DNA of 64,000 nucleotides, taken from contig CAZUJN010000001.1 of assembly GCA_964620475.1 (NCBI GenBank), positions 4,651-68,650 on the forward strand, given 5' to 3'. This document shows positions 31,833 through 44,445 of the stretch, one piece after another (position 1 is the stretch's first letter; each line of letters opens with the position of its first letter). The stretch is from an uncultured Candidatus Saccharibacteria bacterium (lineage in GTDB: Bacteria; Patescibacteriota; Minisyncoccia; Phycocordibacterales; CAIZLB01). The notes under the pieces were generated by a model. That model did not search any database and had not been told where the DNA came from. It was given only the letters and a program-made list of their open reading frames with translations. The position numbers were made by a program, and so were the translations under genes.

Positions 31833-34800
31833 TTATTTTTCTTTTACATCTGGATTAACACGACAGATTATCGAGGTTGTTATCGGAGAAGGAACCAAAT
31901 TTGTTCCAGAACATTTTAATGTATACTTCTGATTTGTTGTTAAACCTGAAACAGTTTTACTTCCACCGCTGGCACCATCAGTAAGTGTTATTGGATAAAC
32001 AGTTGAATCACCTCCGCCAATATTTATATTCCAACCACTAAGATTACATGATGATCCTGAAGGGATGTTTGATATATCCCATGATATTGTACAGTTACCA
32101 TTTTTATTTAATGAAACTTTAGGGTCTTTAGATAGATTAATAACAGGAGGATTAACAACTGTATTATTACACTGAGGTGAAGTGTCCCCTGGCTGACAAC
32201 CTGTTACTGTTGTTGGAGTATATGAACATGTTTTAGAAACAATTTTTCCATCATATAAATCCTTAAGTTCAACAGTCATTGAATCACTTGTTGTTGGTAA
32301 TGCTTTTGTATATACATATGAACCATCTTTGTTTGTGGTTGCAACAAGTGTACCATCTTTCCTGTATTCAACATTACCCAACGTTGTTTTTCTGTCTGGT
32401 GTAAATGTATATGTTAGATTTGTATCACTTGAAGACATAACACAATATGCATTAAAAGCACAAGCAGGATCATTTGTAACTTTATTTACCTGAACACCAT
32501 TTTCTTTATAGACCATATCTCTACCTACACAAGAATTAGTTTTAGTCACCGTTGGGGGTGTACAGGTTGTTCCATCAAAATATCCCATCCAATCACCTGT
32601 TGGGTCTGAACATGTACCAATTGGTTTACATGTTTTACCTGCATCCATAAGATTCTTAAAGAAAGGTGCTATATTTCTGTATTTACCACCATCACTACCA
32701 CTAGGTATATTATATCGAGCTGCTGTAGGTGTGTAAGTACTATCATATCCATCTGAATCAATTTTTGACTGAAACTCAATCTGATAAGGTGAAATACCTT
32801 CCCCATCTAATTTGTACACACTCCAATCACTATTATTAGAAACAGTTGTGGGTTTAACAAGCTCAGGATCATAACAGGTTGCCTCATCAGTCAAACCAGC
32901 TTCTATTATCTTATAAGTTGATGTCCAGCTTTTAGTATCATCACCTCTATTATCTAATCTAAATGTTATAGTACAATTACCATCATATTTCATACCAGGA
33001 ACGTTTTCTTTTTTACCGCCATATCTATAAAGGTTTTTAGAAGCATATTCAGGTGTTAAACCACTTATATCACCATATATTCTATTATCCGGCTGACCAA
33101 ACATAAATCTAAATATTGGATATCTAATCATCTTCCATGAACCAAGTTGTTCAGCTACAACATAAAATCTTTTATTTTCTGTTATAGATGGTCTAGTATC
33201 AGATGTATAGCCAAGATATTTACATATATTTATACTTTTATCATGCCAAGCAGCCCTGTCTGTACCATCTATATTATAAAGAGGAGAAAAAACCTTAGAA
33301 CCAGCTATAAAAGTATTCCTAAGCTCTCCATCAGTACAAAAACTTCTGTCTAAGATAGAATCAACATTACTCTCAAAAACATCTCTTGTTGTAGCAACAG
33401 AACGACACACATCAGAAGACATCTTTCCAGCTTCTACTATTTTTAGATAAACTCTATCATAATCAGTGTCATCTCCTTGATATTTTGTATAAACAGTAAC
33501 ATTACATCCCCCATTATATGTCGCATAATTAACATTTCTCTTTCTTCCACCCGGGTCAAAAGTTATTGTTTTAGATTCATTTTTAACAAATCTATATATA
33601 TGAAATCTCTTATATGTCCAACCAGATCTACCAGAATCAGATATAACATAAAACGGTGATCCGTTGTCTATGGTACCAGCTATTGTTGAACATATATTTA
33701 TACTTGCACTTATAGGCCCACCTGTACTACCTGTACCAGGAGCAGTTATATCAACGACTTCACCAGAAGAAAAATATTTTTTTGCTCTAACATCTTCAAC
33801 AGTACAAGCGTCTCTCAAGAATCTATTACATGCCCATTTCTTAACAAACCACTCATTTGTAGCCGAATCTTCTATACACTCATTGGTTGGTTTAGTGCCA
33901 CACACCTCAACATCAGTAAGAGCTTTAACAGAATGAGCTCCAACAAAAGCAACCGAGGACATCAATAATATCATTAACATCATCAATGATTTTTGTTTTT
34001 TCTTTTTAAAAACCATAAACACTATTATTAGTAATAATATCAATACGGACAGGATCATATAATATATTTTATTTGAATTTACATGTGTAATGTTAACAGT
34101 TTTTGTTTTTGTTAAAATAATACTTCCGTCTTTATCAAGTATATCAACCTTTACCAAGACTTCACCGACCATATTTTTCAACACCTCAACTCTTTCATTC
34201 ACATTTATTGTACCTTCTTTATAAAAAGTTTTATCTATTTCCTTTTTAAAAATCTCTTTTTCATATTGAGAAACAGAAATAACAACTTTATTATTTTCTT
34301 CTTTTTCTAATTTTGATTCATATCCAATATTTGCATAAACATCTAAATCCTCAACCAATATTTGTGTATCAGTAAAATTATAAGCTGAATTAGATAATAT
34401 AAATTTATAATCAACAGATATCTTTGGATAATTAGTTGATGTTATTTTTAATCTATATTCTCCACCATTTATATTCAAAGGCACCTTAATATTCAACACG
34501 TTTTTGGTGAAAGAAACCGCTTTAAAAAAGTTTTTATTTTTTTCTAGATATTTATCAAACTCATCTGGTTGTTTTTGAGGATTTGGGGCCTTTGTCTTAG
34601 GACTAGATGCTGACCAAACGGTGTTATTTTGGACATCAAACACTTCTATATTCAACTCTGGCTCAACCACTTCATAATCAACCCCATCCTGAGCTATTAA
34701 TTTTACAAAAAGATTTGACCCTTTTATTAAATTTAATTTTTCATTAAAAGTAGTAAAGGAATCAGAACTTATTTCCATGTTATCAGTAGAGTACACAACA

Positions 34801-34877
34801 GACTCTTCTGCTTTAATGATTTTATTACCAATAAAAAAACTTAACAATAAAATCAAAAATAAAATATTTTTTTTCAT
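31833..34877 (-). CDS. Large (1014 aa) secreted/surface protein: signal peptide, ~240-aa domain, TM/second signal-like segment (~aa 275-320), then long Cys-rich Thr/Asn/Gly-rich extracellular region
   Basis: MKKNILFLILLLSFFIGNKIIKA signal; hydrophobic YYMILSVLILLLIIVFMVF-KKKKQKS-LMMLMILLMSSVAFVGAHS; many Cys in C-terminal 700 aa. Confidence 0.5.
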   Translation of the reverse strand: MKKNILFLILLLSFFIGNKIIKAEESVVYSTDNMEISSDSFTTFNEKLNLIKGSNLFVKLIAQDGVDYEVVEPELNIEVFDVQNNTVWSASSPKTKAPNPQKQPDEFDKYLEKNKNFFKAVSFTKNVLNIKVPLNINGGEYRLKITSTNYPKISVDYKFILSNSAYNFTDTQILVEDLDVYANIGYESKLEKEENNKVVISVSQYEKEIFKKEIDKTFYKEGTINVNERVEVLKNMVGEVLVKVDILDKDGSIILTKTKTVNITHVNSNKIYYMILSVLILLLIIVFMVFKKKKQKSLMMLMILLMSSVAFVGAHSVKALTDVEVCGTKPTNECIEDSATNEWFVKKWACNRFLRDACTVEDVRAKKYFSSGEVVDITAPGTGSTGGPISASINICSTIAGTIDNGSPFYVISDSGRSGWTYKRFHIYRFVKNESKTITFDPGGRKRNVNYATYNGGCNVTVYTKYQGDDTDYDRVYLKIVEAGKMSSDVCRSVATTRDVFESNVDSILDRSFCTDGELRNTFIAGSKVFSPLYNIDGTDRAAWHDKSINICKYLGYTSDTRPSITENKRFYVVAEQLGSWKMIRYPIFRFMFGQPDNRIYGDISGLTPEYASKNLYRYGGKKENVPGMKYDGNCTITFRLDNRGDDTKSWTSTYKIIEAGLTDEATCYDPELVKPTTVSNNSDWSVYKLDGEGISPYQIEFQSKIDSDGYDSTYTPTAARYNIPSGSDGGKYRNIAPFFKNLMDAGKTCKPIGTCSDPTGDWMGYFDGTTCTPPTVTKTNSCVGRDMVYKENGVQVNKVTNDPACAFNAYCVMSSSDTNLTYTFTPDRKTTLGNVEYRKDGTLVATTNKDGSYVYTKALPTTSDSMTVELKDLYDGKIVSKTCSYTPTTVTGCQPGDTSPQCNNTVVNPPVINLSKDPKVSLNKNGNCTISWDISNIPSGSSCNLSGWNINIGGGDSTVYPITLTDGASGGSKTVSGLTTNQKYTLKCSGTNLVPSPITTSIICRVNPDVKEK

Positions 34878-34918
34878 ATATATATTTTATATTAAAAAAA
34901 ATTCAAACACCAGAGATT

Positions 34919-35323
34919 TTACCTTATTTCAATCTTTCTGTTGTCTTTATCTATGTGTTCGAAATATATATTTATATCAGCTTCAAAATTATTATCATTT
35001 ATTAATTCAGGCCATTCTATAAAAATAAGATTATTTTGATCATTTAAATATTCTTCAAATTTTAATTTTTGTAAATCTTTATAACTATTTAACCTATAAG
35101 CATCTATGTGTATAAGGTTTTTAAATCCAAGATTATCAAAACCATATCTCTTTAAAATAACAAAAGTTGGACTTTGTATATCTATATTCATTTTTAAAAA
35201 TTCACAAAAGTTCTTTGTAAAAGTGGTCTTCCCTGCACCTAAATCACCAAATAAAAAAACAACAGTTGCTCTATTTGTATTTTTCTTGTCTTTAATCAAA
35301 TTAATAAAGTCATCAAAAATCAT
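34919..35323 (-). CDS. tsaE: tRNA threonylcarbamoyladenosine biosynthesis ATPase TsaE (YjeE)
   Basis: Walker A GDLGAGKTTFTK, SPTF motif, ~134 aa. Confidence 0.85.
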   Translation of the reverse strand: MIFDDFINLIKDKKNTNRATVVFLFGDLGAGKTTFTKNFCEFLKMNIDIQSPTFVILKRYGFDNLGFKNLIHIDAYRLNSYKDLQKLKFEEYLNDQNNLIFIEWPELINDNNFEADINIYFEHIDKDNRKIEIR

Positions 35324-35382
35324 ATATTAACAATAAACAAAAACACCCTATTTTACAAGGGTGCATTTGTTTTATTGAGTTT

Positions 35383-36600
35383 TTATGCAGTCATTAATCT
35401 TTTCTTTGATTGATAAACAAATGTTCCAACCGCAGTTAATATCAATACCATCGTAGCAACCATATAATGTATCCAAGATAGAGATAGACCTGTTGCAGGA
35501 AGATCTCCTAGATATACACCTGACACAGGAGTACCTGATGATATTTTTTGTGTAAATATACCTGATACTGGTGACCCTGATGATATAGAAGATGTATATC
35601 CTGAATAGTTATTTATGTAAGTTGAACAATTTGCTGTTGTTGATCTACCGTTTGAATATACTGTTACCTGTGCATTTTTAGCACCAGCATATGAATAGGT
35701 TTTGTTTATAGCCTGATCATTACCATATAAACTGTCTGTACCTGACCAATAATATGAATAGTTACCATTTCCACCATTCACATTAACCCTCCAAGTAACT
35801 GTTTGATTTATACCAGCATTTGATGGATTAGCATAACATGTTGCTGATAAATTATCATTATAATAATTATCGTTCTCAAATGTAACATCACATGTTTTTG
35901 TAACAGTCTCTTGACCTGATCTTATTGTAACAACAGCTGTTTTAGTACCAGTAGTATATGAGGTAAATGATGTAGCAGAATATGAAGAATAATTCACATC
36001 ACCACTCCAAGAATATGTATAGTTACCAACACCACCTGATGCATAAGCTGTAGCTGTAACAGTTTGACCAACTTTAGGGTTTGAAGGAACTATATTACAA
36101 TAACCAGTTAGATTTACGTGTGTTGGGTTATAAACAACGGCATTACCTCCTGGGTTTGTATAAACATAAACGTTGTTATTGTTAATGTTGTTGTTTATGT
36201 TTGTGCTTGAAGCAACAGCAGTAGCTGTGTTTTTATTATTATTTTTGTTGTTATTCTTATTATTGTTTTTTACAGAAGTGTTTGAATATGAAGGTGTTGC
36301 TGATGTATAAGGGTTATAACCTGAGTAACCAGCGTAATAAGAATATGGCATAGAATATGAACTATATGATGGGTATGAGTATGAGGAATATGAAGGATAT
36401 GAGTATGTAGGTGTGTATGAGTATGATGTATAAGGAACATAATCAGTATAACCACCAGAAGTAGTCCAACCAGAACCAGAATTCCAACTATCTGTACCAT
36501 ATGAACCTGTTGGTCCAGCAAAAGTAACAGTAGGAAACATAAATACAGCAAAAACCGCAGTAAATATTAGTTTTTTAGTTTGTGTGTTTGTTTTTAACAT
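35383..36600 (-). CDS. Cell-surface protein with N-terminal signal peptide, Tyr/Ser-rich (SYSYPSYSSYSYP) and (NNNK)n repeats, Ig-like repeats, and C-terminal LPATG sorting signal + hydrophobic helix + KKR tail (sortase substrate)
   Basis: C-terminus ...DLPATGLSLSWIHYMVATMVLILTAVGTFVYQSKKRLMTA. Confidence 0.7.
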   Translation of the reverse strand: MLKTNTQTKKLIFTAVFAVFMFPTVTFAGPTGSYGTDSWNSGSGWTTSGGYTDYVPYTSYSYTPTYSYPSYSSYSYPSYSSYSMPYSYYAGYSGYNPYTSATPSYSNTSVKNNNKNNNKNNNKNTATAVASSTNINNNINNNNVYVYTNPGGNAVVYNPTHVNLTGYCNIVPSNPKVGQTVTATAYASGGVGNYTYSWSGDVNYSSYSATSFTSYTTGTKTAVVTIRSGQETVTKTCDVTFENDNYYNDNLSATCYANPSNAGINQTVTWRVNVNGGNGNYSYYWSGTDSLYGNDQAINKTYSYAGAKNAQVTVYSNGRSTTANCSTYINNYSGYTSSISSGSPVSGIFTQKISSGTPVSGVYLGDLPATGLSLSWIHYMVATMVLILTAVGTFVYQSKKRLMTA

Positions 36601-36703
36601 GATGTATATATATTAGCATACTTGATACTATTTGTCAAGCACTTATATAACCCCAAAAGATAATACAAGTGACAAAAAGCCTTTATTTATATAAATAAAA
36701 TTA

Positions 36704-36723
36704 CCTCGGTGTTTCCACCGAGG
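36704..36723 (-). terminator. Strong terminator hairpin (cctcggtg-gaaa-caccgagg) followed by T-rich tract on minus-strand transcript
   Basis: 8-bp GC-rich stem 3' of the L,D-transpeptidase gene. Confidence 0.6.
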
Positions 36724-36759
36724 CTGTGCCAGATTTATACGTACCGGCTCAAAAAAACG

Positions 36760-37428
36760 TTAATTTTGAACAACTGTCACTTTTATGCCCACAGACACAA
36801 GACGAAACAATTGAACACCAGCGGGTTCAGACACCCTGATACAACCACGGGATGCAAAGGACAGGTCACCACAATGGATGTATATACCGCGATCTTTAGA
36901 TACAAGTAACGCTTTGGGCATTCTTGCACCTTTGATTTCACGAGATACATGTAGGGACTCCTTGTCGGAAATGGTATAATCTCCTGCACTGATCTGCCTG
37001 TGTTCACCCTCTCTCTCTGAGGTTTGGCAGCGAACCCTACCCATGATTTCACCTTTACCAAAACAGATGATTTCACCTTTTCCGTTGGTATCAAAGGAGA
37101 TTTTAAGGGTGTCAATCGCTGCACCGACAACAAAAAAGCTTGATTTTGTCGACATTGCCTTTGTCACAAGGTTTTTATCAACCTTCCACAGAAACTCTGC
37201 GAAGGTCTCTTTGTCGACCATTTCCTGGAGATCCAGTTTATCAACCTTACCCCAGTTCTTTTGGAGGATAGAGACAACAGCCTCTTTGGAATATTTTCCC
37301 TTGTCCTTTCCGGACCACCCCCACTCAGCTTCATCGCCACCAAAAGTGGAAACTTGTGCAAAACAAGAAGAGGCAAAGGCGGCAAAAAACATGAGAAAAG
37401 CGAACAGAAGTTTTTGAGATGTGTTCAT
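36760..37428 (-). CDS. Secreted L,D-transpeptidase (YkuD-fold) domain protein; GC-rich relative to genome
   Basis: Signal peptide; catalytic motif IYIHCGDLSFASRGCIRVSEPAG (His...Cys of L,D-TPase). Confidence 0.65.
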   Translation of the reverse strand: MNTSQKLLFAFLMFFAAFASSCFAQVSTFGGDEAEWGWSGKDKGKYSKEAVVSILQKNWGKVDKLDLQEMVDKETFAEFLWKVDKNLVTKAMSTKSSFFVVGAAIDTLKISFDTNGKGEIICFGKGEIMGRVRCQTSEREGEHRQISAGDYTISDKESLHVSREIKGARMPKALLVSKDRGIYIHCGDLSFASRGCIRVSEPAGVQLFRLVSVGIKVTVVQN

Positions 37429-37547
37429 GATTGTTGGTTGTTATTGATTGAAGTTTGACTTTTATATACTATCATATTTAACTTAAAAAGTCAATAGTGT
37501 TTATTTAAAATACCTATATTTAATATATATAAAATAAAAAACCCGCC

Positions 37548-37580
37548 AAAAAAGGCGGTAATTTTTTAGGATGTTTTTTT
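37548..37580. terminator. Bidirectional terminator (cccgcc-aaaaaa-ggcgg with flanking A/T runs)
   Basis: Hairpin 3' of 37593..38054(-). Confidence 0.55.
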
Positions 37581-37592
37581 CATCCCGAAGAC

Positions 37593-38054
37593 TCAATTGA
37601 GTCCAGGTTGGTACCTGGTTATTGCAAAACCACCAGGTTGACCGAAGCTAGAAGGCCTTAGGCTGCACCCTTGCTGAGAGTACAAACCCTGTGCGGCACT
37701 AGTCAGCTGACCCTGAGAAGGCCACCTTCCTGTGCGACGAAACACCCCCTCGGCATAATCTTCAAGCCCTGCCCTTACGTTGTTGGTGGCACCTTGTGGA
37801 GCATCGCCCGAAACCTCAATATAGGCACGGCGGTTCACGGTGTGGGCTTGGCGGGTATAACCGCTAACTTGAGGTTCACCCCCGCCATACGGGTTATACC
37901 CGCGGTAGGGGTTGTAACCCATATATTGTTGAGGGCCCTGGAAACCAGGATATGGAGGTTGTGCACCCACCGGACCATATTGGATCGGCGGCACACATGA
38001 AGTGGTGATGAAGGCAAACAGAGAGACGGCGATAGAGGAGACGATGGTTTTCAT
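37593..38054 (-). CDS. Secreted/lipoprotein-like Pro/Gly/Tyr/Gln-rich protein; GC-rich relative to genome
   Basis: Signal peptide with possible lipobox (ITTSC); no catalytic motif. Confidence 0.4.
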   Translation of the reverse strand: MKTIVSSIAVSLFAFITTSCVPPIQYGPVGAQPPYPGFQGPQQYMGYNPYRGYNPYGGGEPQVSGYTRQAHTVNRRAYIEVSGDAPQGATNNVRAGLEDYAEGVFRRTGRWPSQGQLTSAAQGLYSQQGCSLRPSSFGQPGGFAITRYQPGLN

Positions 38055-38225
38055 GATTCGATTGGATTGATTGTTGGTTGGTGCGTGGAACTCATACTTA
38101 TGAGTCCCTTACATGCTTATATATTAACATATTTGTAACCAAAAGTCAACCCTTATACTGCCCCACACAAACAACAAAAACACACACCCCTAGCACAAAA
38201 ACACATAAACATTTACAATTAGTAC

Positions 38226-39908
38226 ATGAATGTAATCTTTGATGAAGAAAAAAAGAATCAACAACTAAAACAAATGAGACAGGACGAAGATGAAAGACTT
38301 GTTCAGATGTTATCGGACAGATATTCTATACCCTATATAAATCTCTCTACTTTTTCTATAAACACAGACGCATTAAGATTATTAGATCAAGAAATAGCCA
38401 AAAAATCAGAATGTGTAATATTTGATATAGTTGGTAAAAAAATACACCTAGCAATATATAACCCCTCAAACGAGTCACTCGAGGATACAGTTGATGGACT
38501 AAAAAGAAAAGGATATGAAATAATTTTTCACATAGCTTCTAAGTTTAGCTTGGATAAAGCTTATGCTTTATACAAAGATTTATCTTTTGCTGTTGAAACA
38601 GAGGCTGGGTCTCTTGATATATCAGACGATGAAATAGAAGAACTTGTTGAAAAAACAGAAAACCTAGAAGATATAAAGAAGTTTTTAACAGAGGCATTAC
38701 AAGAAAAAAAGAGTCATAAACTTTCTAAGTTGTTAGCTGTTATAATGGCTGGAGGTCTTGCCACAAAAGCTTCTGATATACACATAGAAGCTGAAGATGG
38801 TTTCTCTAAGTTAAGATATAGAATAGATGGTGTTTTAATAGAAGCAACACAATTTGATTTAGATACATATCATTCATTGCTTTCTAGATTAAAACTTTTG
38901 TCAGGCTTAAAACTAAATGTAAAAGATAATGCACAAGACGGAAGATTTACTATTAAAATATACACAAATGATATAGAGATTCGTGTATCTACAATACCCG
39001 GATCATATGGTGAATCAATAGTTATGCGTATATTGAATCCAAAATCTATATCTTCAGGTTTAGAAGAACTTGGTTTTAATAAAAGACTTTACGATATAGT
39101 TATAAAAGAAATAAACAGACCAAACGGTATGATACTTTTAACAGGTCCAACCGGTTCTGGTAAGACAACAACACTATATGCTTTCTTAAAAAAGACAATG
39201 TCTCCTGAATATAAAATCATAACCATAGAAGATCCTGTTGAATATCATTTACCAGGTATAGTTCAAACACAAGTTGATGAGAAAAAAGGTTATACCTTTG
39301 GCGAAGGATTAAGATCTATAGTTAGACAAGACCCTGATATTATATTAGTTGGTGAGATTCGTGATGGAGAAACTGCTCAAACAGCAATACAGGCCTCACT
39401 CACAGGTCACCTTGTTTTTTCAACACTACACACTAACAACGCTGCCGGAACTTTTATAAGACTTATAGACTTAGGTGCTGATCCAAAAACACTCACCTCA
39501 TCCCTTCATTTAGCTATAGCACAAAGATTAGTAAGAACTCTTTGTCCAAAATGTAAACAATTAAAAGACATAGACGAAAAACAAAATAAAATAATACAAG
39601 AAACCATAGATTCACTTGAAGGATATGAGGAAAGAAGTGAGGTAACAGAGATACCAAAACAACTTTATGCCGCAGTTGGTTGTGCCGAATGTAACAACAC
39701 AGGATATAAAGGGCGTGTTGGTGTTCATGAAGGAATATTATCTACAGAAAAGATAGAACAAGTTGTATCATCAAACCCTAGTGAGAGAGAAATAAAAGAA
39801 GCTGCTTTAGAACAAAAAATATTAACAATGAAACAAGACGGTGTTTTGAAAATATTAAAAGGAATTACCACATTAGACGAGCTAGAAAGGATTGTTGATA
39901 TATATTAA
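38226..39908 (+). CDS. pilB: Type II/IV secretion-system ATPase (PilB/GspE family; type IV pilus assembly ATPase)
   Basis: Walker A LLTGPTGSGKTTT, Asp box, His box, CPxC...CxxC tetracysteine (CPKC...CAEC) typical of GspE/PilB. Confidence 0.85.
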   Translation: MNVIFDEEKKNQQLKQMRQDEDERLVQMLSDRYSIPYINLSTFSINTDALRLLDQEIAKKSECVIFDIVGKKIHLAIYNPSNESLEDTVDGLKRKGYEIIFHIASKFSLDKAYALYKDLSFAVETEAGSLDISDDEIEELVEKTENLEDIKKFLTEALQEKKSHKLSKLLAVIMAGGLATKASDIHIEAEDGFSKLRYRIDGVLIEATQFDLDTYHSLLSRLKLLSGLKLNVKDNAQDGRFTIKIYTNDIEIRVSTIPGSYGESIVMRILNPKSISSGLEELGFNKRLYDIVIKEINRPNGMILLTGPTGSGKTTTLYAFLKKTMSPEYKIITIEDPVEYHLPGIVQTQVDEKKGYTFGEGLRSIVRQDPDIILVGEIRDGETAQTAIQASLTGHLVFSTLHTNNAAGTFIRLIDLGADPKTLTSSLHLAIAQRLVRTLCPKCKQLKDIDEKQNKIIQETIDSLEGYEERSEVTEIPKQLYAAVGCAECNNTGYKGRVGVHEGILSTEKIEQVVSSNPSEREIKEAALEQKILTMKQDGVLKILKGITTLDELERIVDIY

Positions 39909-41699: not shown

Positions 41700-41981
41700 A
41701 TGCCAAAGAAAAAAGATCTAAATATACAACAACCAGTAGTAAACAATAACGAGGATGAGTTGCAAGATGTTTTGTCTTTAGGTGATTTAGGTATAGATTT
41801 AGGTGACGATGATTTACTCATAACAACAGAAGAAACAATAACTGTTATAACAGAGGAAGATGAAGAATTATTAGAAGATGAAGAATTTTTACTCGGCTAT
41901 AATAAGAAAAAAAATAAAAAAAACAGTTCTGAAGAAGACGATATAGAGGATTTTGATAGTTATTTTTATCAAGAAGAATAA
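41700..41981 (+). CDS. Small highly acidic hypothetical protein
   Basis: 93 aa, D/E-rich; no motif. Confidence 0.35.
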   Translation: MPKKKDLNIQQPVVNNNEDELQDVLSLGDLGIDLGDDDLLITTEETITVITEEDEELLEDEEFLLGYNKKKNKKNSSEEDDIEDFDSYFYQEE

Positions 41982-41997
41982 ATGTTACTATATATAC

Positions 41998-44445
41998 ATG
42001 TTAAAGAAAGTAAAAAAACTGGTTTATAAACTTGAGGATTTTTTGATTAATACTATAACTTATATAATTAGGTTTTTAAGGAAAAGAAAAAAAGGTTATA
42101 CAAAAACAGAAGATTTTATTTATAAAAGTTTTATTGTTTTATTATCTGTTTTTATGTTATCTGCTGGTGTATTCATGATATGGTTTTCGACTTTAAAAAC
42201 ACCGGATATAAACATGTTTGATGATAAACTTCTAGGTCAATCCGCAAAAATATATGATAGGACAGGTAACATCTTGTTATATGATTTAAGTCAAAAAGTA
42301 AGAAGATCTGTTGTGCCTTTGGATCAAATTTCTCCTTATATAGTAAATGCTACAATAGCTATAGAGGATAATGATTTTTATAATCATGATGGTATAAAAA
42401 TAAAATCTCTTTTAAGAGCTGTTTTAGCAAATGTTTTAGATAGAGGTTATAGTCAAGGTGGTTCAACAATAACACAACAAGTTGTTAAAAACTCACTATT
42501 AACAACCGATAAAAAAATAACAAGAAAAATAAAAGAGATTTTCCTTGCTCTTAAATTGGAAAGAAATTTAACAAAGAATGAAATTCTTACATTATATTTA
42601 AATAACTCACCTTATGGTGGAAACATATATGGTGTTGAGGAAGCAACACAATTATTTTTTGATAAAAAAGCTTCTGATGTTACCTTAGCCGAAGCTGCTG
42701 TTATAGCATCTTTACCACAAGCACCATCTAGATATAATCCGTATAGTGGAAAAAAAGAGGCTTTGTTAGAAAGAAAAAATCTTGTGTTAGCAAATATGCT
42801 TAGATTAAAAATGATTAATGAGGATCAATATAATCAAGCTAAAAACGAAAACATAGTTTTTCAACCAAGAAATCTAGGTTCAATAAAAGCGCCTCATTTT
42901 GTGATGTATATAAAAGATCAACTTGAAAAAAAATATGGGTTGGAAAAATTATCAGAAGGTGGTTTTAAGGTTATAAGTACAATAGATTATGATATACAAA
43001 AAAAGGGTGAGGAAATAGCCTCAAATTACATAAAATCAAATCAAAAACGCTTTAATGCAGAGAATGGTGCAATGGTTGCTATAGACCCTAAAACAGGGCA
43101 AATATTAGCAATGATAGGCTCTAGAGACTACTTTGATACAGACATAGATGGTAACTTTAATGTTGCTACCGCTTATAGACAACCAGGTTCTTCTTTTAAA
43201 CCTTTTGTTTATGCCGAAGCTTTTAATAAAGGCTTTTTACCTCAAACAATACTTTTCGATACACCCACAGAATTTTCTTCAGAATGTACACCATCAGGAA
43301 CACCAAAACACCCAGAAGCCGTGTGTTATAAACCTCAAAACTATGAAGGGGGTTATAAAGGTCCTATAACAATAAGATATGCACTTGGTGCCTCAAGAAA
43401 CATACCTGCTGTAAAAGCTATATATTTGGTAGGAATACAACCTGTTATAAATCTAGCAAAAATAATGGGTGTATCAAATCTAGAAGACGCATCAAAATAT
43501 GGTTTATCTCTAGCCTTAGGTTCAGCTGATGTTTCCCTTCTTGATATGACAAGTGCTTATGGTGTCTTTGCCAATGATGGTATAAGAAACAATGTTACAG
43601 GTATATTAAAAATAGAGGATGAGAATGGAAAAATTTTAGAAGAATATGAACCATCACCTAAAAAAGTATTAAACGAACAGGTGGCACGTATGATGAATGA
43701 TATTTTATCTGATCCCGCAGCAAGAAATTCTATTTTTGTTAAAAATTATTTCAAAGATGATATTGTTGCATTAAAGACAGGAACAACAAACAATTCTCGT
43801 GATGCTTGGACTATAGGTTACACACCAACAGTGGTTATGGGTGCTTGGATGGGTAATAACAATAATAAACCCATGTCACAAATAGCTTCTGCGTTGATAG
43901 TCTCACCTATGTGGAAACAATATATGGATTTTATATTAACAAAAGTTAATAAAGAAGATTTTATAAAACCAGACGAAATAACAGAAGATGTTAAACCATT
44001 TTTTAAAGGATCTTATAAAACAGCAGATGGTGTTGCACACAGTGAGTTGTATTGGATAGACAGAGATGATATATCAGGTGCACAACCATCCAACCCTGCA
44101 AAAGATCCGTTGTTTTATAATTTTGAAAATTCTATATACAACGATAGTCAAACTTTTAGTAGTGGTAATAATAATTCAGGATTATCTATAAGTTTATCAA
44201 ATAAAACATTAAATAAAAAAGATAATTTATCTATAACAGTTTCTGGTTATGATGAAAAAACAAGTAAAATTGATTATATTATTAATAATAATAAAATAGT
44301 TAGCTTAGGTAATCCTCCTTATAATTACACTGTTAATATTGGTTTATTATCAAACATAGAACCAGAAAACGAATTAAAGGTTGTTGAATATAGAAACGAT
44401 GGAACAACAAGAATATCCACATCATACTTTACAGTTCAAGAATAA
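41998..44445 (+). CDS. Class A penicillin-binding protein (PBP1A: glycosyltransferase + transpeptidase) with C-terminal extra domain; start probably ATG 41998 (MLKKVKK...) rather than ORF-track 41953
   Basis: GT51 motifs IAIEDNDFYNHDGI, RKIKE; transpeptidase SSFKP (SxxK), SRN, KTGT motifs. Confidence 0.9.
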   Translation: MLKKVKKLVYKLEDFLINTITYIIRFLRKRKKGYTKTEDFIYKSFIVLLSVFMLSAGVFMIWFSTLKTPDINMFDDKLLGQSAKIYDRTGNILLYDLSQKVRRSVVPLDQISPYIVNATIAIEDNDFYNHDGIKIKSLLRAVLANVLDRGYSQGGSTITQQVVKNSLLTTDKKITRKIKEIFLALKLERNLTKNEILTLYLNNSPYGGNIYGVEEATQLFFDKKASDVTLAEAAVIASLPQAPSRYNPYSGKKEALLERKNLVLANMLRLKMINEDQYNQAKNENIVFQPRNLGSIKAPHFVMYIKDQLEKKYGLEKLSEGGFKVISTIDYDIQKKGEEIASNYIKSNQKRFNAENGAMVAIDPKTGQILAMIGSRDYFDTDIDGNFNVATAYRQPGSSFKPFVYAEAFNKGFLPQTILFDTPTEFSSECTPSGTPKHPEAVCYKPQNYEGGYKGPITIRYALGASRNIPAVKAIYLVGIQPVINLAKIMGVSNLEDASKYGLSLALGSADVSLLDMTSAYGVFANDGIRNNVTGILKIEDENGKILEEYEPSPKKVLNEQVARMMNDILSDPAARNSIFVKNYFKDDIVALKTGTTNNSRDAWTIGYTPTVVMGAWMGNNNNKPMSQIASALIVSPMWKQYMDFILTKVNKEDFIKPDEITEDVKPFFKGSYKTADGVAHSELYWIDRDDISGAQPSNPAKDPLFYNFENSIYNDSQTFSSGNNNSGLSISLSNKTLNKKDNLSITVSGYDEKTSKIDYIINNNKIVSLGNPPYNYTVNIGLLSNIEPENELKVVEYRNDGTTRISTSYFTVQE

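Follow-up and report, generated by a model that had tools for sequence, protein, structure and literature searches.

An LPATG-tailed PKD-repeat protein of Patescibacteria, encoded beside a YkuD-type gene: a putative sortase-anchored surface protein

Results

Organisation of the locus

The window, by which we mean the whole 64-kb stretch of DNA that was analysed (64,000 nucleotides), carries on its minus strand a gene for a protein in which a signal peptide, a Ser/Tyr stretch, an Asn/Lys stretch, two PKD/Ig-like beta-sandwiches, a linker and a terminal unit of LPATG, transmembrane (TM) helix and KKR follow one another (Table 1). The exact coordinates of this open reading frame had been proposed in a first-pass annotation and were borne out, and to these the strand, which had been left unstated, can be added. 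The gene is real: it has 170 homologues in metagenome-assembled genomes (MAGs) of Patescibacteria/Parcubacteria, the best of these at an E-value of 1e-162. The family is conserved and specific to Patescibacteria, and the encoded protein is of an ordinary kind, namely a surface protein of an ultra-small (Patescibacteria/CPR) bacterium. In a promoter scan of positions 34800-38300 the site directly upstream of the ATG was joint-best (10/12, tied with two others), and it is the only one of these three sites to combine a perfect TTGACA with a TG preceding the -10; it is furthermore one of three similar 37-nt elements (D1), each of which precedes one of three consecutive genes. Upstream lie a gene for a YkuD-type protein, which has its own promoter and terminator, and a gene for a putative lipoprotein, while the neighbourhood also includes genes for a class A PBP and for a type IV pilus PilB-type T2SSE ATPase.

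Table 1. Coordinates of the gene, of the parts of its product and of neighbouring features in the window.
Feature	Coordinates	Strand	Basis
Whole gene, 405-aa secreted PKD-repeat protein with LPATG-type C-terminal signal	35383..36600	-	ORF, ATG start
Signal peptide, residues 1-28 (MLKTNTQTKK, hydrophobic core, TFA/G)	36517..36600	-	read from sequence
Ser/Tyr/Thr/Gly/Pro-rich low-complexity region, residues 29-107	36280..36516	-	composition; predicted disordered
Tandem repeats of 24 and 9 nt	36356-36407		
Asn-rich region with (NNNK)3, residues 108-143	36172..36279	-	50% Asn
(TTA)10.7 tract	36233-36264		
Invariant NNVYVYTNPGGNAVVYNP motif, residues 142-159, marking the window's subfamily 'type A' ('NNVYVYT')	36124..36177	-	alignment A3
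PKD/Ig-like beta-sandwich domain 1, residues 164-245, with Y-x-Y-x-W-x-G-D	35866..36111	-	AF2, Foldseek
PKD/Ig-like beta-sandwich domain 2, residues 250-332	35605..35853	-	alignment A3, AF2, Foldseek
Disordered linker, residues 333-366, with duplicated SG(S/T)PVSG(I/V)(F/Y)	35503..35604	-	pLDDT
LPATG pentapeptide, residues 367-371	35488..35502	-	motif search
Transmembrane segment, residues 374-396	35413..35481	-	hydrophobicity 1.93 over 19 aa; AF2 helix 374-404
Short basic cytoplasmic tail QSKKRLMTA, residues 397-405	35386..35412	-	read from sequence
Intrinsic-terminator-like hairpin and T-run	35343..35364	-	just past LPATG-gene stop codon
Promoter-like site TTGACA-17-TAATAT, extended -10 TG	36610..36638	-	directly upstream of LPATG-gene ATG
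Secreted 222-aa YkuD-type (L,D-transpeptidase-like) protein, upstream neighbour	36760..37428	-	Pfam YkuD
Terminator of the YkuD-type gene	36703-36724		
153-aa Pro/Gly/Gln-rich putative lipoprotein, conserved second neighbour	37593..38054	-	alignment A2, synteny
Class A PBP gene	41953-44445		

The N-terminal half and the PKD/Ig-like domains

The signal peptide has the features of a Sec signal peptide, with a basic n-region, a Kyte-Doolittle maximum of 2.0 and an AF2 helix over residues 2-25, and it is kept in the relatives aligned in A3. The Tyr/Ser repeats and Asn-Lys repeats that had been noted in the N-terminal half are reflected in its composition, as residues 29-107 (79 aa, pLDDT <50 in AF2) consist of 26.6% Ser, 25.3% Tyr, 12.7% Thr, 11.4% Gly and 10.1% Pro and include SYSYTPTYSYPSYSSYSYPSYSSYSMPYSYY, and as residues 108-143 contain VKNNNKNNNKNNNKN, which corresponds to the (TTA)10.7 tract in the DNA. 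Both regions vary: the first ~65 residues of the Ser/Tyr-rich region, inside which the tandem repeats lie, diverge between near-identical strains (window versus L005), and the length of the Asn-rich region is strongly variable across homologues (A3 columns 200-320). The columns from N142 to P159 are invariant in A3, and the NNVYVYTNPGGNAVVYNP motif is present in 72 of the 121 family members.

The Ig-like beta repeats described at first pass, for which structural modelling had been advised, are real PKD-like domains, judging by AF2 pLDDT, Foldseek and the occurrence of PF18911 in relatives. AF2 gave a pLDDT of ~90 for residues 160-245 and 250-332, which form two PKD-like beta-sandwiches of 6-7 strands and ~85 residues each, and Foldseek returned 227 PDB matches at E<=1e-3, the best being the SorCS2 ectodomain (6fg9, E 1e-8), which contains PKD domains, ahead of tandem Ig, Fn3 and S-layer domains. 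PF18911 matches 9 of 26 close relatives (best E 7e-6), and many more distant relatives have precomputed PF18911/PF00801 matches. Like known PKD proteins (PF18911 PKD_4, PF00801 PKD), the window protein thus has ~85-residue beta-sandwiches and the Y-x-Y-x-W-x-G-(T)-D signature; it differs from them in having no Pfam match, so that it stays below the thresholds of both PKD profiles, and in having two invariant Cys residues on either side of each domain, one pair per domain (C168/C237 in domain 1 and C255/C325 in domain 2; A3). The four invariant Cys residues fit an extracytoplasmic protein.

The C-terminal signal

The C-terminus had been described as a canonical sortase signal, a description that holds for its anatomy and fails for curated profiles. 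LPATG is located 34 residues short of the C-terminus, inside the expected 30-40, and is followed by the hydrophobic helix and a positively charged tail with KKR; the window protein has no Pfam/NCBIfam match at E<=1, the anchor models PF00746 and TIGR01167 included, and PF00746 touches only 1 of 26 relatives (E 0.14). As both models are short, carry little information and were built mostly from Firmicutes and Actinobacteria, the non-match counts against profile membership and not against the mechanism.

Conservation of the motif in orthologues, on which the first-pass proposal had been made to depend in advance, is evident: L367, P368, T370 and G371 are invariant in A3 (26 relatives, identity down to 49%; mean column identity 47%), and [LIVM]Px[TS]G stands near the C-terminus in 111/121 family members and in 72/72 of the 'NNVYVYT' subfamily to which the window belongs. 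Variants of the pentapeptide across the family are VPYTG, VPATG, IPATG, VPDTG, IPSTG and LPETG; ahead of the pentapeptide stands a conserved G(V/I)(Y/F)L within the hexamer G[VI][YF]L[SNG][QDE], and K400 in the tail is nearly invariant. In the window protein the second copy of the linker repeat leads into GVYLGD immediately ahead of LPATG, residues 334-373 have a pLDDT <50 (AF2), and the signal profile matches twice. From these alignments the C-terminal signal is judged to be under strong selection.

The signal profile (alignment A5) collects 451 clusters at 50% identity, which defines the gene as a member of a widespread CPR-specific PKD-repeat family with the same C-terminal signal. The conserved block exceeds the pentapeptide, with GTPVSGVYL upstream and a patterned TM segment (K..LF..GL..WSAF.AY) downstream, and 115 of the best 149 profile matches run from 9 to >300 residues beyond the basic patch, some of them into conserved cytoplasmic domains. 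Such features would suit an uncleaved type I membrane protein held by its C-terminal helix, in which G(V/I)(Y/F)Lxx[LIV]PxTG would serve Patescibacteria-specific single-pass PKD proteins as a conserved juxtamembrane element on the extracellular side, perhaps in docking or oligomerisation, since a sortase would sever the extensions; the unmatched LPXTG models and the failure to find a sortase near any examined locus of the window's subfamily (see below) agree with this. We nevertheless regard an uncleaved protein as unlikely, because the exact spacing of [LIV]PxTG ahead of a TM segment and a basic patch is the signature of a sortase substrate, because the window tail belongs to the short canonical class (34 of the best 149 matches) and because family genes are found beside sortase genes at six loci. 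In addition, the PKD relatives P0043, P0056 and P0065 keep the TM segment without the motif, which indicates that the motif is dispensable for membrane anchoring itself.

Sortase genes

That the window lacks a sortase gene, as had been stated, was confirmed by three scans, which revealed no ORF of >=60 aa with a TLxTC motif, no PF04203 match among the 51 window ORFs scanned and, for an HMM built from 21 patescibacterial sortases, no match among the six-frame ORFs of >=50 aa. Equally, the TLxTC regex and the sortase HMM detected no sortase in the 10 kb to each side of the gene at the 18 distinct loci that represent the window's subfamily; the regex overlooks the sortase at L019, and the HMM detects it. 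None of the best 120 patescibacterial sortase matches was traced to the four long contigs, of 110-618 kb, on which the window's subfamily occurs, and none had an NCBI locus tag in common with the three annotated MAGs of that subfamily, which weighs weakly against a sortase in it. Long contigs with subfamily genes include JAZKJG010000002.1 (276 kb), CALRFG010000001.1 (175 kb), CAYVEK010000003.1 (142 kb) and ERZ4208449 NODE_1 (618 kb), and the MAG CAZSTO01 is a relative of the source genome at ~95% identity. A pairing of sortase P0135 with P0022, a member of the subfamily, in one genome (GCA_040384045.1) was considered and rejected, as this is a metagenome-level assembly and the two accessions lie 20,067 apart, which places them in different MAGs.

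Sortase genes do adjoin more distant family members in six loci. A PF04203 sortase lies directly upstream of the family gene in the P0079 context and in L024, L019 and L026; in L022 it is one gene away and in L025 three. In related genomes the sortase gene is placed between gyrB and thrS/dnaE, adjoining a gene for a CARDB-domain protein. Five sortase/family pairs apparently share contigs, including that of L024, where the locus tags are consecutive (RL094_306/307); all five are in the distant subfamily, and no pair of this kind was found in the window's subfamily. The sortase-adjacent members share the layout of the window protein, namely a signal peptide, Tyr/Ser low-complexity and Asn-rich regions, two PKD domains, GTPVSGV(Y/F)Lxx[LIV]PxTG and a TM segment. 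The presence of members with the same architecture beside sortase genes suggests that the window tail is most likely a sortase signal, for which the enzyme would be encoded elsewhere in the genome; according to published work (PMC6744442), more than half of CPR genomes encode a sortase, and its distribution among CPR groups outside the Microgenomates is patchy.

The patescibacterial sortases beside the family (e.g. P0123, P0135, P0141 and P0165) contain the catalytic H and R together with TLSTC and are recognised by TIGR01076, the model for sortases in general; they reach no NCBIfam class A-F threshold, scoring ~50 bits versus cut-offs of 140-166. As Ig-like domains with an LPXTG-type signal are also the layout of pilins, and as a pilus ATPase gene is located nearby, the possibility was considered that the protein is polymerised by sortase into a pilus, as one of its subunits, and is not anchored to the wall as a monomer. 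This was dropped as highly improbable: the window protein has neither a pilin motif (WxxxVxVYPK; YPKN Lys) nor an E-box, the patescibacterial sortases fall below the class C threshold, and the sortase loci each hold a single substrate gene and no pilin cluster, while the neighbouring ATPase, being of the type IV pilus PilB type, belongs to unrelated machinery.

The YkuD-type neighbour and the exchanged cassette

The YkuD-type gene is located immediately upstream of, and co-oriented with, the gene for the LPATG protein at every one of the 18 distinct loci of this subfamily, to which the window protein belongs. Its secreted product has a YkuD catalytic domain, with PF03734 scoring 24.7 bits against a cut-off of 23.4, and H185, G187, G195, C196 and R198 (the HxG...GC(I/V)R motif) are invariant in A4 (19 sequences; mean identity 28%). 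A profile of the protein matches more than 30 solved L,D-transpeptidases, including LdtMt3, LdtMt2 and Ldtfm, at E-values of 7e-5 to 5e-3, and L,D-transpeptidase activity (YkuD/ErfK, PF03734) is accordingly predicted, although only the ~100 C-terminal residues match these enzymes, the N-terminal ~120 being without a match. Of the six sortase loci, L022 and L025 also hold a YkuD gene next to the PKD gene, L025 together with an analogous small lipoprotein, and the other four have no YkuD gene within 10 kb.

The YkuD-type protein is far more divergent than the products of neighbouring genes and its gene has an anomalous GC3, which for this gene and that of the small lipoprotein is two- to three-fold above the rest of the genome in five genomes. 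Between strains of otherwise ~95% identity the YkuD-type gene has been exchanged for an allele with ~24% identity to it, its allele class co-varies with the class of the N-terminal tip of the LPATG protein, and where the window is compared with L005 the recombination tract spans both the YkuD gene and the tip. Two other origins of the GC-rich cassette (36641-38046) were considered. A chimeric assembly at the GC jump at 36.6-38.1 kb is contradicted by independent assemblies with the same two genes, GC3 contrast and position, and a phage origin found no backing in PHROG, which gave no match for the window genes and one weak match in L023 only.

L,D-transpeptidases attach E. coli Lpp and outer-membrane proteins to peptidoglycan. 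The high GC3, the allele swap and the co-variation with the tip point toward a pairing of the LPATG protein with the YkuD-type enzyme, in which this Cys/His enzyme would be the functional partner and would covalently couple an amine of the variable N-terminal tip to peptidoglycan, be it that of its own cell or of a host cell, or would replace sortase at LPATG in lineages without a sortase nearby. The adjacency in 18/18 loci, the catalytic residues kept despite a mean identity of 28%, the YkuD genes in two sortase loci and the recombination tract would be in keeping with such a partnership. Physical linkage alone would yield the co-variation, however, and a promoter and a terminator for each of the three genes mark them as separate transcription units; a YkuD gene is missing within 10 kb at four of the six sortase loci, and the enzyme may merely remodel its own cell wall, a PBP gene being located nearby. 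We know of no L,D-transpeptidase with a protein LPXTG site as acyl donor, which likewise counts against the pairing, and we consider it improbable. If it did apply, the locus would represent an attachment module that evolves fast and is exchanged horizontally, in a bacterium with an epibiotic way of life.

Discussion

On balance we hold it to be rather probable, for the explanation as a whole, that the protein is exported by Sec to the surface of its bacterium, a member of the Patescibacteria of Parcubacteria/Paceibacteria type, and is there anchored to the wall by a sortase with its tip projecting outward. According to this proposal the signal peptide would be removed and the protein held in the membrane by the C-terminal helix and the KKR stop-transfer tail, whereupon a membrane sortase encoded elsewhere would cut LPATG between Thr370 and Gly371 and transfer the protein onto peptidoglycan precursors. 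The ~34-residue linker and the two PKD/Ig-like domains, presumed to be braced by disulfides, would then project from the wall and present at their distal end the ~115-residue disordered Tyr/Ser-rich and Asn-rich tip as the likely contact surface with cells or polymers. The class A PBP gene in the window indicates that the genome makes peptidoglycan, and this was counted in favour of wall anchoring. That the protein acts as an adhesin is our guess from its architecture.

The protein resembles the LPXTG proteins of Gram-positive bacteria in its signal peptide, its [L]PxTG followed by ~23 hydrophobic residues and a Lys/Arg tail, its Ig-like passenger domains and the position of relatives by sortase genes. 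Unlike those proteins it is not matched by PF00746 or TIGR01167, and its conserved signal is longer, with GTPVSGVYLxx before the pentapeptide; the organism that encodes it, moreover, belongs to the Patescibacteria, with a poorly understood envelope. Some observations stand against sortase anchoring: the disordered low-complexity region is distal and N-terminal instead of wall-proximal as in many Gram-positive LPXTG proteins, long conserved cytoplasmic extensions past the TM segment, as carried by many superfamily members, are unusual for sortase substrates, and the negative results for sortase genes in the 64-kb window and near the 18 subfamily loci, as well as for the anchor profiles, belong here too. 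Patescibacterial sortases (PF04203; TIGR01076) were found next to the more distant members, and none in the window or the subfamily loci.

To our knowledge experiments have so far revealed next to nothing about how Patescibacteria/CPR bacteria build their surface or attach to a host, and in a searchable collection of the literature the publications that mention LPXTG together with the candidate phyla radiation described no such proteins. The family has an extended, recognisable signal that in part of its members is genomically tied to unclassified sortases, and it provides a concrete candidate contact protein, anchored to the wall as proposed, as well as a motif with which CPR sortase substrates can be listed. 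If the protein is simply anchored by sortase, it would represent an ordinary extension of Gram-positive biology to the CPR, and the part from which something new could be learned is the YkuD-type cassette, linked to it and hypervariable. The YkuD-type gene, an invariable neighbour in the subfamily, had gone unmentioned in the first-pass annotation.

Architecture of the LPATG protein

The LPATG protein is, in our judgement, somewhat more probably than not a PKD-repeat surface protein that is anchored to the wall by a sortase and carries a disordered Tyr/Ser-rich tip at its distal end, a reading that refines the first-pass annotation and is supported by the anatomy of the sorting signal, its strict conservation and the physical association of sortase genes with other members of the family. 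The ORF lies exactly where it had been placed, and it represents a real gene, as a homologue search returned 170 matching database proteins (best E 1e-162) from MAGs labelled Patescibacteria, Parcubacteria or Paceibacteria. From its own promoter-like site and terminator-like hairpin the gene is predicted to be a monocistronic unit. The Tyr/Ser-rich and Asn-Lys repeats described for the N-terminal half were recovered as two adjoining stretches of biased composition. The second of these, which is encoded in part by a trinucleotide tract, varies from 0 to >60 residues among the homologues in alignment A3 of LPATG-protein relatives, and this suggests in-frame slippage.

Positions of the LPATG gene, the parts of its product and other features of the window (nt, window nucleotides; aa, residues of the LPATG protein)
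Feature	Position	Strand	Remarks
LPATG gene	35383-36600 nt	minus	ATG start, 405 aa
Promoter-like site of LPATG gene	36638-36610 nt		TTGACA-17-TAATAT, extended -10 TG
Terminator-like hairpin of LPATG gene	35364-35343 nt		
(TTA/AAT) tract	36233-36264 nt		~10.7 units; codes for Asn/Lys run
Signal peptide	1-28 aa		MLKTNTQTKK, hydrophobic core, TFA-G; KD maximum 2.0; AF2 helix 2-25
Low-complexity stretch	29-107 aa		26.6% Ser, 25.3% Tyr, 12.7% Thr, 11.4% Gly, 10.1% Pro (composition)
Asn-rich stretch	108-143 aa		50% Asn, with VKNNNKNNNKNNNKN (composition; (TTA)~10.7 tract)
Invariant motif	142-159 aa		NNVYVYTNPGGNAVVYNP (alignment of relatives)
Two N/G/Y/T-rich repeats	164-245, 250-332 aa		Alignment and AF2
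Linker	333-366 aa		SG(S/T)PVSG(I/V)(F/Y) twice (AF2; signal-profile match)
LPATG pentapeptide	367-371 aa		Motif search
Hydrophobic segment	374-396 aa		Hydrophobicity; AF2
Tail	397-405 aa		QSKKRLMTA (read from translation)
YkuD-type gene	36760-37428 nt	minus	222 aa, secreted; immediately upstream of LPATG gene
Pro/Gly/Gln-rich lipoprotein gene	37593-38054 nt	minus	153 aa, second cassette gene
~37-nt elements	36602-36638, 37458-37494, 38113-38149 nt		Promoter-like
tRNA-Ile	27806-27881 nt	minus	Anticodon TAT (ARAGORN)
SmpB fusion	30239-31357 nt	plus	SmpB domain 3-146; Peptidase_C39-like domain 173-338
tmRNA	31405-31792 nt		
1014-aa ORF	31833-34877 nt	minus	N-terminal signal peptide
Conjugation/type IV secretion-like cluster	50148-57001 nt	minus	Adjoins yidC and dnaA

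An AlphaFold2 model built on an alignment of 26 relatives shows two beta-sandwiches of high confidence (160-245 and 250-332, pLDDT ~90) and a C-terminal helix (374-404), with disorder predicted for residues 23-152 and 334-373. Foldseek comparison with the PDB gave 227 matches at E<=1e-3, headed by the SorCS2 ectodomain, which contains PKD domains; tandem Ig, Fn3 and S-layer domains ranked next. The LPATG protein itself has no Pfam or NCBIfam match; PKD_4 is matched by 9 of the 26 close relatives, and PF18911/PF00801 matches are precomputed for many more distant relatives. On the strength of these folds, structural matches and PKD matches, the repeats previously described as Ig-like, NG/NY-rich and beta can be specified as PKD-like domains. 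Four cysteines (168, 237, 255 and 325), invariant in the 26-sequence alignment, bracket the two domains, an arrangement that would fit disulfide-stabilised extracytoplasmic domains. Sortases have been reported from CPR genomes, and sortase substrates with Ig-like domains are well known. A sortase-assembled pilin was rejected as highly improbable because pilin motifs are lacking. Judged from architecture alone, an adhesin role would be plausible for an epibiotic lineage. The protein belongs to a large CPR-specific family, and no description of this PKD/LPATG family was found in the literature searched.

Sorting signal and associated sortases

The C-terminus had been called a canonical sorting signal, which holds for its anatomy (LPATG, hydrophobic segment and KKR tail) but not for its match to curated models, as no LPXTG model of Pfam or NCBIfam matches the tail. 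L364, L367, P368, T370, G371, L374 and Y379 are invariant in the 26-sequence alignment, where mean column identity is 47%. The motif [LIVM]Px[TS]G occurs within the last 95 residues in 111 of 121 proteins (the LPATG protein and the 120 homologues listed), its variants among these being LPATG (73), VPYTG (9), VPATG (9), IPATG (7), VPDTG (4), IPSTG (3), LPETG (2), IPYTG (2), LPNTG (1) and LPSTG (1), and in the motif-bearing proteins listed G[VI][YF]L[SNG][QDE] always stands before the pentapeptide. All 72 listed proteins of the window's subfamily, type A, which is marked by NN[VI][YF]VYT, carry the motif; it is thus strictly kept in orthologues, where its loss had been named as evidence against anchoring.

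Conservation extends over a longer block than in a classical sorting signal. A 53-position profile of this block, run against 1.84 billion representative proteins, matched 451 clusters at E<=1e-3, 191 of them at E<=1e-10, and the 30 new matches inspected were PKD-repeat proteins of 300-1330 aa, save one repetitive non-PKD sequence. Among the 149 best matches the basic patch lies at most 8 residues from the end in 34, as in the LPATG protein, and is followed by more than 8 residues in 115, of which 90 have an extension of 9-45 residues that includes a conserved AFK..NM.KKG motif and the remaining 25 have longer cytoplasmic regions. Many PKD proteins among the profile matches (P0259, P0262, P0263, P0317, P0329, P0338, P0349 and others) combine [LIV]PxTG-TM with 75 to >300 residues of conserved cytoplasmic sequence, for example ...LISRDG.EAIV...GDYATLN.EKIN. 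Cytoplasmic extensions are unusual among sortase substrates and unexpected in targets of sortase cleavage; together with the conservation beyond the pentapeptide, these long tails in the superfamily support an alternative, in which the protein stays in the membrane uncleaved, as a type I protein whose juxtamembrane motif is conserved. We regard this alternative as rather unlikely.

That the window holds no sortase gene was borne out, with no TLxTC motif in its ORFs, no PF04203 match among 51 of its ORFs and none of its six-frame ORFs matched by a sortase HMM built from patescibacterial sequences. Nor is a sortase encoded within 10 kb of the gene at the 18 distinct type A loci (the window and related loci L001, L003, L005-L009, L011-L018, L021 and L023), which have the order dnaA-dnaN ... 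PBP1A - ruvC - ruvB - pilB-type ATPase - small lipoprotein - YkuD-type - LPATG gene - tsaE. The one apparent co-occurrence of a type A protein and a sortase under GCA_040384045.1 was discarded, as this is a metagenome-level assembly in which the two accessions are 20,067 apart, indicating different MAGs. Over half of CPR genomes have a sortase, which is near-ubiquitous in Microgenomates and patchy in other CPR groups (PMC6744442).

The more distant type B members share the overall architecture at ~40-47% identity. They have a PF04203 sortase gene that is co-oriented and directly upstream in the context of protein P0079 and at loci L024, L019 and L026, and that lies one gene away at L022 and three genes away at L025. 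These loci always lie between gyrB and thrS/dnaE, beside a CARDB-domain gene. At L022, L024, L025 and L026 the latter (369-420 aa) is divergent and adjoins the sortase gene, between it and gyrB, and could belong with it to one envelope module. At least five sortase/family pairs were found on contigs of equal size (41788, 2840, 33604, 17801 and 509474), the last being L024 with consecutive locus tags RL094_306/307. The type B sortases possess the catalytic His, TLSTC and Arg, and score above the cut-off of the general sortase model and below every class-specific cut-off. Since the gyrB-thrS region is absent from the scanned window ORFs, a sortase could sit there, outside the window, and a sortase serving the LPATG protein would probably be encoded at that locus elsewhere in the genome.

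A strain-variable cassette beside the LPATG gene

The C-terminal ~100 residues of the YkuD-type protein correspond to the catalytic domain of L,D-transpeptidases: the Pfam YkuD score narrowly exceeds its threshold, the family profile gives more than 30 matches to solved L,D-transpeptidases (E 7e-5 to 5e-3), and H185, G187, G195, C196 and R198 are invariant in 19 sequences of only 28% mean identity. Its gene adjoins the LPATG gene at 18/18 type A loci, and a YkuD gene is also present at two of the six sortase loci (L022 and L025). With the lipoprotein gene it forms a two-gene cassette (36641-38046) of GC3 0.43-0.50, as against 0.16-0.18 for all neighbours, a contrast repeated in four other genomes (L001, L003, L005 and L023). 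L005, a contig of 14 kb from MAG CAZSTO01, is the nearest public relative, with ~95% nucleotide identity. Flanks at that level of identity enclose swapped cassette alleles, amino-acid identity being 100% for PilB and 99.7% for residues 96-405 of the LPATG protein, as compared to 43% for the small lipoprotein and ~24% for the YkuD-type protein. The replaced tract reaches into the mature LPATG protein, whose first ~65 residues also differ, and in the loci examined the N-terminal tip class goes with the YkuD allele class. This co-variation is compatible with functional coupling or, equally, with simple linkage in one recombination tract, and we see only a slight chance that the YkuD-type enzyme is a functional partner of the LPATG protein. 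Linked, compositionally anomalous and strain-variable, the cassette is the unusual element of the locus.

One of the three ~37-nt elements, each a TTGAC(A/T)-17-TA(A/G)TAT promoter-like site with extended -10 TG, precedes each of the three consecutive minus-strand genes, and a terminator-like hairpin follows each. By these signals the LPATG, YkuD-type and lipoprotein genes would each have a similar promoter and terminator and would not form an operon.

Further features of the window

SmpB, stand-alone at related loci (146-157 aa), is fused in the window, beside the tmRNA, to a C-terminal cysteine protease domain. The 1014-aa ORF has no Pfam, NCBIfam or PHROG family; at residues ~270-330 a TM segment and KKKKQK precede a second signal-peptide-like segment, and it may represent two fused or adjacent secreted proteins. 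At L001 and L002 a 1197-aa protein without Pfam match occupies the same place after tsaE. The secretion-like cluster encodes two paralogous T4SS_pilin-like proteins (one with an NlpC/P60 domain), a TraG/VirB4-type P-loop ATPase, a TraC-like protein and a PrgI-like protein. The window also carries a tRNA-Ile with anticodon TAT, an uncommon means of reading AUA in bacteria.
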